A stretch of DNA of 64,000 nt from Alphaproteobacteria bacterium (GCA_016125455.1 WGLS01000027.1:9954-73953), one strand, 5' to 3'. Positions 49,763 to 57,832 are shown, counted from the first letter of the stretch. Notes: generated from the letters alone by a model not told the origin. Numbers and translations: made by a program.

Positions 49763-49839
<77 letters not shown>

Positions 49840-52377: not shown

Positions 52378-52722
52378 TTAGTCGAGCATCCGTTTCACGA
52401 GCATCCGTCGTTTGTAGGCAAGATTGTCGCGGGCGACATTCAGGTCGCTTCTGGCCTTCGACAACTCTTTCATCGCGCTCTCGATGTCGCTGCCCCTGAT
52501 CCAGGCAGCAAGGACGTCAAGGTCGTCGACATTATCAGACGCCAGATTGGCGCGCTCGCCTTCCAGGATATCGAAGCGATGGCCGCAGAATTCGCCGCGC
52601 CGCGCTTGCCCGCAGGTGCATGACGCCTTCAGATTGCTGGAATTGTTTGCGTCCCGACTGATCGTAACCTCAAATACGTCATCGTTTTCGCCAATGACGG
52701 AAAATTTCAGGCTTTGAACCAT
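52378..52722 (-). CDS. Small SWIM-type zinc-finger protein with coiled-coil tail
   Basis: Start trimmed to the ATG at 52722, preceded by GGAGGGAG. CTCGQARRGEFCGH fits CxC-x(n)-CxH. Hand counts of G+C in lines 52381, 52441 and 52621 are 33/60, 35/60 and 29/60, against 45/60 in line 52201 of the neighbouring gene. Confidence 0.55.
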   Translation of the reverse strand: MVQSLKFSVIGENDDVFEVTISRDANNSSNLKASCTCGQARRGEFCGHRFDILEGERANLASDNVDDLDVLAAWIRGSDIESAMKELSKARSDLNVARDNLAYKRRMLVKRMLD

Positions 52723-52837
52723 TTCAGCTCCCTCCACTCCGGCGCGCCATTCCTCGCCGCCGCCCTGCGCCATCGCTGCGATACACGACTATTGGGCGCG
52801 GCGCTAAACGCAATCATCAGCGGGACGCAATAGCCCC

Positions 52838-55303
52838 GTGTTCGGCATCAGCGGCCCCATCAGACGGCTTATCGGCCTCGTCGCAATCTTTCTTGCCTTT
52901 GTGGCGTCCGGCGTCGCGTCGTTCCAGGTCCTGGGCGGCAGTTTCGGCTCGCCGGCCTTTGACGCCTATAAGGTTCTCCAACTTTTCGTGTTGAGCGGCG
53001 ACTGGGTCTTTGGACCGAACTCGAACTGGTTTGTGCGGCGACAGGCGTTCATTGCGCCCGTCTTCACGGTCATCGGGATCATCGAGATCTTCACGGCCCA
53101 GTTCTTTTTTCGAATCTGGCAGGCCTCGAAGCTCGCGCGAATGGACAATCACGCCGTCATCGCCGGCCTGACGCGCGAAACGATGTTCCTTCTCGCGTCC
53201 CTGCGGCACGCGAAGGAACGGGTGGACGTGGCGATTGTCGACGCCCGTTTCGACGATGACATGAGGGCGATGGCGAGACGACTTGGCGCCGTGACTATTG
53301 AAGGCGACGCCGCGTCGCCCGCGGCGCTAAAGGTCGCCCGCATCGACCGGGCGCAGATTGCGATTTCATTTCTGCCCGAAGCGGTCGACAGCCTTCAGTT
53401 CGTGCTCTCCGCCAACAGCCTTATTGAGGACAGCCGAAAGGCTGGCGCGCCTCGGAACCCGGGCGGCGACGCGCGCAGCGTTGATCTCTGGGTCCGGTTG
53501 CAGGACGCGGGCCTTGGCAGCCGGCTCGGCACCTATTTCAAGTTCGCCGGACTGTCCGCCGCCGCGCATCCGCGATTCTTCAGCATTGACGAGATCGCCG
53601 CCCGCAGGCTGATCCGCGCGCACCCGCCGGACCTTTACGCCGACGCGCTCGGCCAGACACGGGTTCACCTGGTCCTGTTCGGCCACAACGCACTGTCAAT
53701 CCAGGTCATCGCGGAGTGCCTTCGCCAGACGACCGTGGCCGGAGACGCTAACGTGACGGTCCTGACAGCCGACCCTGAAGTCGCCGAACGCGAGCTGCGG
53801 GCTATCTTTCCTTCGATCGACGACATGGTGAACCTTGAGGTCCGCCTGCTGACAGTTCATGCGAGCGGCATATCGCAGGCGGACTATCTTTCGCTGCCGA
53901 CCGACGCGTCCATGAACGTGATCTGCTTCGAAAAGCCCGAAGCCTCCGTGAACGCGGCCCTGTCGCTTCGGCGAATGCTGCTTGTGCCTCCTGACATTGG
54001 CGATGCAACGGTCGAACGGCGCACCAATGCGCCAATCCTCGTCCGCCTTTCGAATACGCGCGGGATTGGCGAACTGCTTCGCTCGAACGTCGACAAGAAA
54101 ACCCAGCGCGGCGCGGGCGCAAGCGACGCCGAGAGCGAAATTCCCGACGGCATATTTGCGTTTGGCGCAATAGAAGACCTGCTGACCGGCGATGCCGAAG
54201 ACCTGTTCGTGCCGACGCTGATCGATCCGATGCGCGAACGGCTCGCCCGCGCGCTGCACGAATCCTATGTCGAGAACCGCAGCGCGAATGACGCCGCAGC
54301 GGCCGGCGTCCGGACTGCGCCGTCGTGGGAAGTTCTCTCCCAGGATTTCCGGGAATCAAGTCGGCAGGCCGCGGATCATATCTGGGCGAAGGCGCGCGCT
54401 CTTCGCCTGAGGCTTGTCGACGGCGTCGCCGGCGCGTCGAGCCTGAACCTGTCAGATGAGGAAAATCAGAGGCTGGCCGAGCTGGAACACAATCGCTGGG
54501 TGAATGAACGGCTGCTCAATGGCTGGTCGAGAGGGGCGAAAAGAGTTGACGCCGCAAGAAGGCACAATCTCCTGCGACCGTGGTCGGAACTATCCGCAAG
54601 CGAACGAATGGTCGATGAGCGCCTTGCCGGACGGCTTGAAGCGACCGTACGCTCCGTCGGCAAGACGCTGCAGCGCGAGCTTGTTGTCGGCGTTGTCGGA
54701 CATCGGCCGACGCCGGGACGCGAGTTCGACGAGCGCCACGTGGCGCTGACCATCAGGGCGAAGCTCGAAAAACTGGTTCGCGATCACCCCGATCGGGCGG
54801 TCGTGCTTGTCACCTGCCTTGCTGAAGGCGCGGACACCATCGCCGCGGAAGTCGCGATCGGTCTCGGCATTCCCTACTGGGTGCCATTGCCGATGCCGTA
54901 CGAGGCCTACAGTCAGGATTTCATGGCGGGGCGGACGGTCAGCGACGCCGATGGGGGCGCTGCGCTGAGACGCTTCCGGCGCCTCGTTGCATTGAGTGAA
55001 CGGTACCTAGAGCTGCCGCTGAAATTCGGCGACCTTACTGAAATCAGCCTGTCCCAGGGCGACTATGTCTCGCCGAGGGCGCGCGACCATCAGTACGCCC
55101 TCGCGGGCGCCTACATCGTCGAAAGATCGGACGTCGTGCTGGCGGTCTGGGACGGACGCCCGAGCCAGGGCGTTGGCGGCACGGGCGACGTTGTTGCCTG
55201 GCGGGCCGCCGGGGAGGCGCCGCGGGAATTCGCGACGCCGGCGGCGTTTCGCATGCGTCCGGCGATCACGCCGGCCGTCATTATACGGCCGACCGCGGAC
55301 TAA
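52838..55303 (+). CDS. Multidomain membrane protein: 2-helix membrane module, two Rossmann/RCK(TrkA_N)-like modules, RyR-like repeats and a C-terminal SLOG/LOG-like domain
   Basis: 821-aa ORF with GTG start. Residues 8-95 have helices LIGLVAIFLAFVASGVASF and FIAPVFTVIGIIEIFTAQFFF. Residues ~105-180 and ~275-380 are Rossmann-like with degenerate Gly loops (AVIAGLTRE, LVLFGHNAL). Residues ~463-600 are RyR-like (LARALHESYV, ELEHNRWVNERLLNGWSRG...RRHNLLRPWSELSASERMVDE). Residues ~614-790 are SLOG-like (VVGVVGHRP, LAEGADTIAAEVAIGLGIPYWVPLP, VLAVWDGRPSQGVGGTGDVV). Domain calls are by eye. Confidence 0.7.
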   Translation: MFGISGPIRRLIGLVAIFLAFVASGVASFQVLGGSFGSPAFDAYKVLQLFVLSGDWVFGPNSNWFVRRQAFIAPVFTVIGIIEIFTAQFFFRIWQASKLARMDNHAVIAGLTRETMFLLASLRHAKERVDVAIVDARFDDDMRAMARRLGAVTIEGDAASPAALKVARIDRAQIAISFLPEAVDSLQFVLSANSLIEDSRKAGAPRNPGGDARSVDLWVRLQDAGLGSRLGTYFKFAGLSAAAHPRFFSIDEIAARRLIRAHPPDLYADALGQTRVHLVLFGHNALSIQVIAECLRQTTVAGDANVTVLTADPEVAERELRAIFPSIDDMVNLEVRLLTVHASGISQADYLSLPTDASMNVICFEKPEASVNAALSLRRMLLVPPDIGDATVERRTNAPILVRLSNTRGIGELLRSNVDKKTQRGAGASDAESEIPDGIFAFGAIEDLLTGDAEDLFVPTLIDPMRERLARALHESYVENRSANDAAAAGVRTAPSWEVLSQDFRESSRQAADHIWAKARALRLRLVDGVAGASSLNLSDEENQRLAELEHNRWVNERLLNGWSRGAKRVDAARRHNLLRPWSELSASERMVDERLAGRLEATVRSVGKTLQRELVVGVVGHRPTPGREFDERHVALTIRAKLEKLVRDHPDRAVVLVTCLAEGADTIAAEVAIGLGIPYWVPLPMPYEAYSQDFMAGRTVSDADGGAALRRFRRLVALSERYLELPLKFGDLTEISLSQGDYVSPRARDHQYALAGAYIVERSDVVLAVWDGRPSQGVGGTGDVVAWRAAGEAPREFATPAAFRMRPAITPAVIIRPTAD

Positions 55304-55348
55304 CGTGAAGCCAGATGCTTCCTTCGTCCACCGGCGCGAAGCTTTGCG

Positions 55349-56836
55349 TCAGCCGAGTTCGCGCACAATGCGGAAGCCTGTGTCGTAGTCGTGCGCTTTG
55401 GCGCCGGCGGGCTTTCGGTGGGCCGCTCTGGTCCGCCATGCGCCGCCGTTGAATGCGCCGCCCTTCAGGACCCGTTGGGCGCATGCGCCAGCAACCGGAC
55501 GTCCGTCGCCGGGATTGCCCGCATGATTCGCTCGCCAGCAATCTTCCGTCCACTCCCAGGTATTGCCGTGCACGTCATAAAGACCGAACCCATTCGCCTT
55601 GTAGCTGCCGACCGGCATCGTCTTGCCGGCGGACTTCTCCTTCGACGCGCCGGCGTAAGGGTACTGGCCATTGAAATTCGCCTGGCTGGTTGAAATCGCA
55701 TTCCCGAACCAGAAAGGCGTCTTTGCGCCAGCGCGGGCGGCGTACTCCCATTCGGCTTCCGTCGGCAGGCGGTAGCGCTTGCCGGTTTTGGCGGAGATCC
55801 ACGCGAGATAGGCCTGCGCGTCTTCATACGAAATGTTGATGGCCGGTCGCTTGCCGCCGCCCCAGCCCTGATTGTTCGGGTCGTAACCGTTGCAGCCGCC
55901 GTCCTTTCGGCACTTGGCCCAGTCGTCAAAGGTCACTTCGTAGCGACCGATCGCGAACGAATAGCCGATCTCCGTCGGCACCTGCGGGGTCTCGGCGACT
56001 TCGCGGCTGGCCTCATCGTCAGGCGCGCCGAGTAGAAAGCTCCCCGGCGCGACAACAACGAGTTCCGGACATTCCTCGCAATCCTTGATGACATCGCCCG
56101 GGGCATAGCCCGACGCGGCCAGGCCGTCCGCGGCGTTCGCAACGATCTCGCCGCCTTTCGCCACAAGATCGCCTCCCTTGGCGAACAGATCCTTGCCAGC
56201 CGGCGTGGCGAAAGCGACGTACGCCCCGCCGCCAATCAGCGCCGCAAGCGCGAGCACGGCGACCGCCGGGCCGAGGGCGCCTGCCCCCTTCCCGCCACTG
56301 CGGCCGGATGGCGCCGCGCTTGCCGCCGCCGTCGCGTTCTTCCCAGCGCCAGTCGCGCTCGACTTCGCGACCTTCACCTTTGATGGCGCCTTTGATGGCG
56401 CCTTTGACGGCCCCCTGGCGTGAGCAGATGCGCCCGCGCCCCTCGCGGGCGCAACAAGCCGCCGGATTTCATCGACAACCCGCCGCCATTCCGGCGCATT
56501 CCTGTCGCCGCGCCAGCTGGTCAGATCCGCCGTCTGAACCCGCTTGAATCCGCGAGGCAATTCGATCGGATCAATCATGACGGGTATCAGGCGCCCCGAC
56601 TGCATCCCGTCGTCGGCTTCCTCCTGCACCCAGTTTGATCGCACCGAGGACATCGACCATACGACGAGGACGCAGTCCGATTCCTTCAGCCGTGCGTCAA
56701 TCACTTCCGAAAACGTGCTGCCGGGCGGAATTTCGGTATCCCACCAGACATTGAAACCTTCGCCCGCCAGCGCGGCGGCCATTTTCGACACGATATCGCG
56801 ATCGTTGCGCGAATAGCTGATGAAGATATCGGTCAC
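55349..56836 (-). CDS. TIR-domain protein fused through one TM helix to an FGE-sulfatase (SUMF1/EgtB/PvdO-type) domain
   Basis: 495-aa ORF with GTG start and GGGAGAG SD. Residues 1-125 are TIR-like (DIFISYSRNDRD, GFNVWWD, CVLVVWSMSSVRSNWVQEE). Residues 189-210 form a TM segment (PAVAVLALAALIGGGAYVAFA). Residues ~250-493 are FGE-like (YRLPTEAEWEYAARAG, GLYDVHGNTWEWTEDCW, RVLKGGAF). Confidence 0.85.
   Translation of the reverse strand: MTDIFISYSRNDRDIVSKMAAALAGEGFNVWWDTEIPPGSTFSEVIDARLKESDCVLVVWSMSSVRSNWVQEEADDGMQSGRLIPVMIDPIELPRGFKRVQTADLTSWRGDRNAPEWRRVVDEIRRLVAPARGAGASAHARGPSKAPSKAPSKVKVAKSSATGAGKNATAAASAAPSGRSGGKGAGALGPAVAVLALAALIGGGAYVAFATPAGKDLFAKGGDLVAKGGEIVANAADGLAASGYAPGDVIKDCEECPELVVVAPGSFLLGAPDDEASREVAETPQVPTEIGYSFAIGRYEVTFDDWAKCRKDGGCNGYDPNNQGWGGGKRPAINISYEDAQAYLAWISAKTGKRYRLPTEAEWEYAARAGAKTPFWFGNAISTSQANFNGQYPYAGASKEKSAGKTMPVGSYKANGFGLYDVHGNTWEWTEDCWRANHAGNPGDGRPVAGACAQRVLKGGAFNGGAWRTRAAHRKPAGAKAHDYDTGFRIVRELG
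56377..56412. repeat. 12-bp tandem repeat CCTTTGATGGCG x3 (in frame; APSK repeats in the TIR-TM linker)
   Basis: Read directly: cctttgatggcg cctttgatggcg cctttgacggcc. Confidence 0.9.
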
Positions 56837-57746: not shown

Positions 57747-57832
57747 TGGTGGAGGGGGGTGGATTCGAACCACCGTACGCCGAAGCGGGCAGATTTACAG
57801 TCTGCTGGATTTAACCACTCTCCCACCCCTCC
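57747..57832 (-). tRNA. tRNA-Tyr (anticodon GTA), long variable arm
   Basis: Reverse complement: GGAGGGGTGGGAGAGTGGTTAAATCCAGCAGACTGTAAATCTGCCCGCTTCGGCGTACGGTGGTTCGAATCCACCCCCCTCCACCA (86 nt). The cloverleaf folds by eye. Confidence 0.95.

Follow-up and report, generated by a model that had tools for sequence, protein, structure and literature searches.

A convergent TIR and RCK-RyR-SLOG gene pair in an alphaproteobacterial genome as a candidate Thoeris-kind signalling module

Two convergent genes in the genome of an Alphaproteobacteria bacterium (GCA_016125455.1), located in a stretch of 64,000 nucleotides (WGLS01000027.1:9954-73953) that was analysed as a whole and is referred to below as the window, encode a TIR-domain protein and a larger protein with channel-like, RyR and SLOG parts. 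The locus raises the question of whether the two proteins form a single signalling system and, if so, which domain receives the signal. The effector gene (52838..55303, + strand) encodes 821 amino acids (aa) and the partner gene (55349..56836, - strand) encodes 495 aa, each from a GTG start. The interpretation favoured here, with a probability of about 0.55, is that the two genes travel as a unit and make up a TIR signalling module of the Thoeris kind, whose effector has an architecture not described before.

The two open reading frames (ORFs) are exactly as given in an earlier note on this DNA, which was made from the sequence alone, with stop codons 45 bp apart and in convergent orientation. 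The effector was defined by its ORF, by Pfam matches (TrkA_N, RyR and YAcAr) and by full-length relatives, and consists, in order, of a two-transmembrane (2-TM) pore-like module, tandem RCK-like lobes, two RyR repeats and a C-terminal SLOG domain. The TrkA_N match covers residues 107-198 (29.6 bits, cut-off 23.8) and the RyR match residues 543-598 (42.3 bits, cut-off 27.4; E 9e-11), and a YAcAr/SLOG match at residues 628-673 is below threshold (20 bits, cut-off 28.2; E 6e-4). The 495-aa protein includes TIR_2 (residues 4-110, E 1e-26), one TM helix and an FGE-sulfatase match (residues 256-492, E 3e-47). No SIR2, Macro or CD-NTase is present, no SIR2, ThsA or STALD match was found in the 821-aa protein using Pfam and PADLOC, no PADLOC model matches this protein, and the partner gave only generic TIR matches in PADLOC. 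The pair, as the earlier note had already stated, belongs to neither canonical type I Thoeris nor CBASS.

Relatives of the 821-aa protein were collected with an exhaustive HMMER search, which returned 1824 proteins at E <= 1e-30, with ~45 full-length fused clusters among the top 150. A word-indexed search gave seven matches to the full protein and four to an N-terminal profile, falsely implying that the family is rare, and a metagenome scan with alignment A1 gave five loci. The synteny check proposed in the earlier note was run on the related loci (given L numbers here), and a TIR gene was found to adjoin the effector gene in seven of the seven distinct loci of the clade in which the effector shares at least 44% identity (the window, L001, L003, L013, L007, L014 and L028). 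The partner is a convergent TIR-TM-FGE gene in the window, in L001/L012 (a Parvularculaceae metagenome-assembled genome, MAG), in L003/L015 (a Caulobacterales MAG) and in L013. The TIR gene lies downstream and is co-directional in L007, L014 and L028, and in L007 and L014 it encodes TIR_2-TM-WD40 (TM-WD40-TM). When the TIR-linked loci were compared using BLASTN, similarity stopped at the borders of the two genes, and the flanks of L003 and L013 are unrelated even though their effectors are 81% identical. The identity of the partners follows that of the effectors (63% with 64%; 51-52% with 57%). Across these loci the TIR domain is constant and the sensor part is exchanged, being either TM-FGE or TM-WD40-TM, and in the distant locus L017 (Halieaceae), where a polytopic membrane protein ending in TIR_2 is encoded one gene away from the effector, it is a polytopic TM module. 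As judged from these sequence comparisons, the TIR gene and the gene for the 821-aa protein are a conserved portable pair that appears to move between marine bacteria.

The 495-aa partner is predicted from hydropathy to have a cytoplasmic TIR domain (residues 1-135; 56432..56836, - strand), a low-complexity Ala/Ser/Lys linker, a single TM helix (residues ~183-210; 56207..56290, - strand) and a periplasmic domain of the PvdO/FGE-sulfatase fold (residues 237-495; 55352..56128, - strand), and the TIR-linker-TM layout was also seen in the partners in L012, L013 and L015. Residue E73 aligns with the Glu of the WxxxE motif in AbTIR (7uwg/8g83), in a TIR-domain protein (7uxr) and in PdTIR (3h16), in agreement with the earlier description of a TIR domain with Glu at the catalytic position. 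We take this Glu to be the catalytic residue, E208 in AbTIR. PvdO (PDB 5hha, E 1e-42) is the nearest match to the periplasmic domain, and the NCBIfam PvdO match of this domain (E 4e-55) is below the cut-off. An enzymatic role as a formylglycine-generating enzyme (FGE) was considered and rejected, as the catalytic Cys pair is absent and the segment aligned to human FGE reads KGGAFNGGAWRTRAAHR. From its sequence, the PvdO/FGE-like domain is more likely to bind a ligand or act as a sensor than to generate formylglycine.

Which part of the 821-aa protein could receive a signal made by the TIR domain was examined through its RyR and SLOG domains. RyR-like repeats had been mentioned in the earlier note, where a sensor role for them was not considered, and two repeats are present. 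Repeat 1 (residues 463-535; 54224..54442, + strand) has H474..Y477, W497, R509 and D513-H514 in conserved columns of an alignment of RyR relatives. Repeat 2 (residues 536-606; 54443..54655, + strand), which carries the Pfam match, has H551, W554, R569, H576 and D593, and its matches in the PDB are RyR R12 and a Bacteroides thetaiotaomicron RyR-domain structure. Phage RyR-domain proteins (PF02026) have been reported to cleave or sequester the cyclic ADP-ribose (cADPR) signal 2'/3'cADPR (Lopez Rivera et al., PMC13232231; 10.64898/2026.06.04.730250). The contact residues are H75/W78/H100/D117 in RyDEP (PMC13232231) and H129/W132, K147/H154 and K170/D171 in RyR-Tad (10.64898/2026.06.04.730250), and the spacing of the repeat 2 residues from H551 (+3, +18, +25 and +42) is that of the RyDEP and RyR-Tad ligand residues, which follow the same order of H, W, (K/R), H and D. 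PF02026 is common to the phage proteins, animal RyR Repeat12 and the window protein. However, RyDEP and RyR-Tad are soluble dimers acting against Thoeris, whereas the window domain is host-encoded, in tandem in one chain and fused to a channel-like part, and its likeness to the phage proteins is read from sequence.

Conservation of the RyR and SLOG residues was counted in 58 fused family members. The aromatic residue at 554 and R/K569 are present in all 58, H551 in 50, H576 in 49 and D593 in 45, and the full H-W-R-H-D set was found in 7/7 TIR-linked proteins of the alphaproteobacterial clade. As repeat 2 carries the residues that contact 2'/3'cADPR, it is rated as a candidate sensor at least as good as the SLOG domain. 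Within the library of papers searched, none links a host RyR-domain protein to Thoeris, and neither the RyR nor the SLOG part gave anything significant in a PHROGs scan.

The C-terminal domain (residues 607-821; 54656..55303, + strand) had been assigned to the SLOG superfamily from two motifs, and the fold check suggested for it bears this out. The AlphaFold2 (AF2) model, built with a family alignment, has a mean confidence score (pLDDT) of 92 and a predicted TM-score (pTM) of 0.90, and its best Foldseek matches in the PDB were YpsA (2nx2, E 2.5e-6), ShosA (8zva) and several DprA structures, with further matches to a Moco carrier protein and to the LOG-type proteins TM1055 and TT1465. A sequence search of the SLOG profile against the PDB gave nothing meaningful, and only the fold search was informative. 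The motifs G621-H-R, A662-E-G-A-D666 and G780-G-T782 are kept in ~50 of the 58 fused members. The domain belongs to a YpsA/YAcAr-like family with no Pfam model of its own; a profile of it found 1079 proteins at E <= 0.01, most of them standalone proteins of ~200-260 aa without Pfam annotation, and among 81 members scanned YAcAr was matched in 14 and DprA in three.

A TIR gene was found nearby in six of nine sampled loci of this SLOG family, often beside a pore-type or caspase effector. In L025 (2725-6517), a three-gene operon encodes TIR_2-TPR (749 aa), SLOG (246 aa) and SLATT_3 (259 aa), and from its gene content this operon is a type VII-like Thoeris system plus a SLOG gene. A SLOG gene is followed by a DUF4231/DUF2207_C-type membrane gene in L026 (5001-6755), and the two are fused in L019 (101-1801; an archaeal MAG). 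In L009 and L036 the SLOG-family gene is near genes for large TIR proteins. On plasmids, a TIR-caspase operon with a SLOG-family gene was found in Bacillus subtilis pBS72 (L034:3635-5489; hhalign probability 99.6%, E 7e-24) and another in Methylorubrum pB146-1 (L033:5163-7368), where the link to SLOG is a tblastn match (E 6e-8). Current models have SLATT effectors read the TIR signal directly, and the sensor of the caspase-like effector has been hypothesised to be the C-terminal domain of that effector. Because the effectors beside standalone SLOG genes are reported or proposed to sense for themselves, SLOG of this family looks, on the pattern of gene content, like a separable accessory, either a co-sensor or an enzyme of signal processing or turnover. 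The family, with more than 1000 matches, no Pfam model of its own and an association with TIR genes, seems to supply Thoeris operons resembling types IV and VII with an accessory gene that has been overlooked. The small extra gene in the type IV-like operons of pBS72 and pB146-1 is annotated as hypothetical and is unmentioned in the type IV paper. In L026, an upstream protein of >1949 aa has no Pfam match.

Across the family, the RyR site and the SLOG motifs decay in a complementary manner. Eight fused proteins with degenerate SLOG motifs, including that of the TIR-linked L007, keep the RyR H-W-R-H-D site, and fused proteins with an altered RyR site (H576N, D593N/E), mostly from a distant gammaproteobacterial clade, keep SLOG intact.

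The N-terminal half was described earlier as a two-helix membrane module with two RCK-like modules, and the AF2 model of residues 1-462 and its Foldseek matches to RCK channels agree with this. The pore-like module (residues 1-101; 52838..53140, + strand) was defined by AF2 secondary structure, hydropathy and a motif census, and has TM1 at 6-31, a short re-entrant-type helix at 39-51 and TM2 at 64-101, with A73-P74 at its start. The motif around the short helix is Y44..L47.L49F50.L52.G54D55W56, with the general family form Y..L.LF.L.G(D/E)W...AP, and the pore loop of the window protein reads FVLSGDWVFG, with no TVGYG selectivity filter. Two Rossmann-type RCK-like lobes of the gating-ring type follow (residues 102-462; 53141..54223, + strand), as identified from the TrkA_N match and Foldseek. 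The structural matches to residues 1-462 were GsuK (4gx0, E 7e-9), the TrkA ring (4j9v), CASTOR/DMI1 (6o7a), Slo1 and full-length MthK. The best of these, GsuK, MthK, BK and CASTOR, have 2-TM or 6-TM pores with tandem RCK rings, and the order TM1, pore helix, TM2, RCK, RCK is common to the GsuK/MthK type and the window protein, to which RyR and SLOG domains are appended in addition.

The channel-RCK-RyR and SLOG parts also occur apart. Many relatives of 570-630 aa span only the channel-RCK-RyR part and lack SLOG. A co-directional, split relative of the window module was found in L027 (1-5732; JGI 3300039305, Ga0436437_00112) through its standalone SLOG protein, P0067. The order of genes there is the end of an RyR-domain gene, TIR_2, TIR_2-DUF8082, a Tll0287-like/HAMP sensor, Ion_trans_2-TrkA_N-RyR and a standalone SLOG gene. 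The L027 channel protein (593 aa, filter TVTGYGD) aligns to residues 75-613 of the window protein (E 1e-36) and carries Ion_trans_2 where the window protein has its pore-like module. L032 is split in the same way, into a channel-RCK-RyR gene and a separate SLOG gene. As the two units also occur separately, the 821-aa protein is read, from these alignments, as their fusion. L027 differs from the window module in its canonical K+ filter and in having a haem/PAS-like sensor in addition.

The pair was then compared with described systems. A preprint survey of December 2025 lists 29 putative Thoeris types, of which types V-XI have been validated (Yirmiya et al., bioRxiv 10.64898/2025.12.03.692087), and membrane or channel effectors are triggered by TIR signals in types II, V, VII and X (10.64898/2025.12.03.692087). 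In type I, the TIR protein ThsB adjoins the SLOG-bearing protein ThsA (SIR2-SLOG), as in the window pair, and the TIR makes 3'cADPR, which is bound by SLOG (10.64898/2025.12.03.692087). However, the window pair lacks SIR2, its SLOG domain is YpsA/YAcAr-like and not of the ThsA type, with no Pfam SLOG model above threshold, its output is a membrane pore-like module, its TIR is membrane-anchored with a periplasmic domain, and the genes are convergent. Type X is a TIR protein with an 'ion channel' effector, ThsK, and one Bacillus system of this type, for which the signal is unknown, has been validated (10.64898/2025.12.03.692087). The combination of TIR and a predicted ion channel is the same in the window pair, whereas no similarity was detected between the window TIR and the validated type X TIR, that of Bacillus sp. 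BH32, and the effectors were compared by description only. When the type X TIRs were used in tblastn searches of plasmids and phages, no type X locus was found, and the two plasmid matches inspected were TIR+Macro (type II). 'SLOG and 4TM' and 'SLOG Patatin' effectors have also been predicted, and neither RyR, TrkA nor sulfatase is mentioned in the text or tables examined of the survey (10.64898/2025.12.03.692087). The effector had been called unrecognised in the earlier note; this holds for the RyR/TrkA architecture, which is unlisted, but not for the combination of TIR with an ion channel (type X) or with 'SLOG and 4TM', which are already published.

A TIR nucleotide signal also triggers a membrane-breaching effector in type VII (TIR + SLATT), in type II (TIR + Macro-TM) and in the SLOG-SLATT associations that underlie the Pfam name 'SMODS and SLOG-associating 2TM effector'. 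The likeness extends to the SLOG family of the window, which lies between TIR-TPR and SLATT_3 in L025 and is beside or fused to DUF4231 in L026 and L019. In contrast to SLATT systems, the membrane part in the window combines an RCK ring with a 2-TM module like that of P-loop channels, and all parts are fused in one 821-aa chain. TRPM2-type channels have a SLOG-like MHR1/2 region and are gated by ADP-ribose (ADPR), and the analogy drawn with them earlier is that of a SLOG-superfamily domain on an ADP-ribose-responsive ion channel. However, no Pfam match to LSDAT_prok or LSDAT_euk was found in the 821-aa protein at E up to 1, its pore is 2-TM/RCK rather than 6-TM TRP, and its SLOG domain is C-terminal. 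Most plausibly, the TIR/821-aa pair works like a Thoeris system with a membrane effector.

In the proposed mechanism, the 495-aa protein would be a membrane-anchored sensor-enzyme, whose periplasmic PvdO/FGE-like domain, replaced by WD40 or a polytopic membrane module in sister loci, would perceive a cue. The cue would activate the cytoplasmic TIR domain to convert NAD+ to an ADP-ribose-derived nucleotide, probably a cADPR isomer. The 821-aa protein would be both receiver and executor, combining a GsuK/MthK-like 2-TM pore and tandem RCK lobes with two putative nucleotide-signal modules at its cytoplasmic end, the RyR R12-like tandem repeat and SLOG. RyR repeat 2 is favoured as the gating receptor; SLOG, as an additional and separable module, would act as a co-sensor or as a signal-processing/turnover enzyme. 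Binding of the ligand would act via the RCK ring to open the pore, which is probably poorly selective as the K+ filter is absent. Opening of the pore would dissipate ion gradients and arrest growth, as abortive infection, and hence with a possible anti-phage role, or as a stress arrest.

The earlier note had instead made SLOG the sensor. If SLOG were the sole sensor, reading the TIR signal as in ThsA and transmitting it to the pore, the RyR repeats would be structural or regulatory extras. The confirmed fold, the GHR, AxGxD and GGT motifs kept in most fused members, the frequent proximity of the family to TIR genes and the binding of 3'cADPR by SLOG in type I Thoeris are all consistent with this. 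However, SLOG is a separate gene in L027 and L032, an extra gene in TIR-caspase and TIR-SLATT operons whose effectors are reported or proposed to sense for themselves, and missing from many channel-RCK-RyR relatives. The TIR-linked L007 protein has degenerate SLOG motifs and an intact RyR site, and RyR-domain proteins bind cADPR isomers at nanomolar affinity. A sole-sensor role for SLOG is therefore considered unlikely, and of the earlier claim the SLOG fold stands while its role as the sensor is putative, given the standalone SLOG genes, the relatives without SLOG and the signature in RyR repeat 2. Somewhat less unlikely is a physiological second-messenger circuit rather than immunity, in which a periplasmic cue (envelope, redox or metal) would lead to a TIR nucleotide that tunes flux through the RCK channel. 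GsuK-type channels are metabolite-gated, the sensor domain is PvdO-like and predicted to be periplasmic, the flanking genes are all housekeeping with no marks of mobile elements, and distant members are mostly without an adjacent TIR gene, suggesting a general role as nucleotide-gated channels. Against such a circuit, the pair has been transplanted as a unit into unrelated contexts, the exchange of sensors (FGE, WD40, multi-TM) is typical of immune sensors, and relatives of the SLOG domain are encoded in Thoeris operons that resemble types IV and VII, including two plasmid-borne ones.

It is very unlikely that the logic is reversed, with the TIR protein an NAD+-depleting effector, or the two proteins independent, and the channel sensing cellular NAD+/ADPR. 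Many bacterial TIRs are NADase effectors, and such TIRs were left out of the Thoeris survey; RyR R12 domains also bind ATP and ADP. However, the two genes are strictly co-inherited and co-vary, and a dedicated ligand is suggested by the effector's two kinds of domain, both of which are known to bind cyclic ADPR signals made by TIR proteins. Chance adjacency of two unrelated genes, for which their convergent orientation and lack of a shared promoter could be cited, is effectively refuted by synteny, as the pair is kept in 7/7 independent contexts and a split operon has the same parts.

A number of observations nevertheless weigh against the Thoeris-kind module as proposed. The function of the pair is predicted from sequence and modelled structure. 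The genes are convergent and hence not co-transcribed, and phages are not usually sensed through a periplasmic domain. Among six loci of the distant clade (28-34% identity), only one has a TIR gene nearby; of the five loci without one, four are contigs of 4-9 kb and L021 has 10-kb flanks. No recognisable defence genes were found in the flanks in the window and related loci. As to the channel part, Ion_trans_2 matches neither the window protein nor any of 46 relatives, the AF2 model of residues 1-462 has a pLDDT of 76 with the membrane part low (pLDDT 47-71), the GxGxxG motif of RCK1 is degenerate (G110-L-T-R-E-T), and the L027 channel can be aligned by profile only from TM2 onwards (76-428, probability 99.8%). 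In contrast to GsuK/MthK, the window protein thus has neither the TVGYG filter nor an Ion_trans_2 match nor GxGxxG in RCK1. Because Ion_trans_2 is unmatched and the alignment to the L027 channel covers only the part from TM2, we infer a channel from modelled topology, fold and position, with no signature match. Homology of the pore loop to Ion_trans_2 was considered and dropped on the evidence of this alignment.

Beyond the pair, the window is made up of housekeeping genes, including the SUF system, panB, dusA, BamB, a Der-type GTPase, an O-antigen ligase, a SpoU methylase, a glutathione S-transferase (GST) and a short-chain dehydrogenase/reductase (SDR). As this context is housekeeping, we infer a defence role from architecture and relatives and not from the neighbourhood, which lends no support to the defence role that had been suggested. 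PADLOC matches across 43 large window ORFs (SspA/DndA, DpdF/BrxH/HamB/Cas3 and LeoA) were set aside as housekeeping look-alikes, since Pfam identified these ORFs as SUF-cluster cysteine desulfurases, a DEAD-box helicase and a Der-type ribosome-binding GTPase. The PADLOC models for SspA/DndA, DpdF/BrxH/HamB/Cas3 and LeoA thus cross-match housekeeping genes. A tRNA-Met (49763-49839, - strand) and a tRNA-Tyr (57747-57832, - strand) bracket an 8-kb stretch that holds the TIR/channel pair together with a methyltransferase gene, an O-antigen-ligase-like gene and a small SWIM-like ORF. The gene pair has no GC shift and no flanking repeats, and promoter and terminator matches are at chance level. Because GC shift and repeats are absent, there is no clear island between the tRNAs.

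The SWIM-like ORF (52378-52773, - strand; 131 aa, or 114 aa according to the gene caller) has a faint CxC...CxH pattern (Pfam SWIM E 0.17), and no homologue was found by tblastn in L001-L008. It was rejected as a third component for these reasons and is probably lineage-specific or spurious, so that the SWIM gene, which the earlier note had proposed to include in a test for co-occurring neighbours, falls outside the module. Of the overall interpretation given there, the outline (TIR, SLOG, a channel-like half and their pairing) stands, but SLOG as an established sensor, the SWIM component and neighbourhood support for defence do not.

Other proteins were seen beside distant homologues of the effector. 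In L021 (2617-7374), a 1586-aa leucine-rich-repeat protein is encoded just upstream of a fused homologue (30% identity) with no TIR gene within 10 kb, and it may be an alternative sensor partner. In L008 (2295-3518, - strand), a 407-aa convergent membrane protein with a weak SMP_2 match is encoded beside a homologue of 32% identity, at the place of the TIR gene, and the contig is short.

No described effector joins an RCK-gated pore with RyR and SLOG domains, and the field of TIR nucleotide signalling is growing fast. If the Thoeris-kind module were confirmed, it would be a new class of Thoeris effector and would show two cADPR-type binding modules cooperating in one protein. The two 2026 preprints on phage RyR proteins (PMC13232231; 10.64898/2026.06.04.730250) left open the role of cellular RyR domains with such ligands, and the locus is a natural host-side test case, in which a TIR enzyme is genetically coupled to a channel-like protein with the RyR ligand-contact residues. 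It is tentatively suggested, as a possibility short of an even chance, that a cADPR isomer made by the TIR is received by the host RyR R12-like repeat, which gates an RCK-type channel, with the fused SLOG domain providing built-in signal processing or turnover. If this were true, phage RyDEP and RyR-Tad would be explained as sensor domains captured from host effectors, and bacteria would have an axis from cADPR through an RyR domain to an ion channel, a prokaryotic functional antecedent for the Repeat12 of animal ryanodine receptors. Confirmation would also inform the long-running debate about a link between cADPR and the ryanodine receptor.

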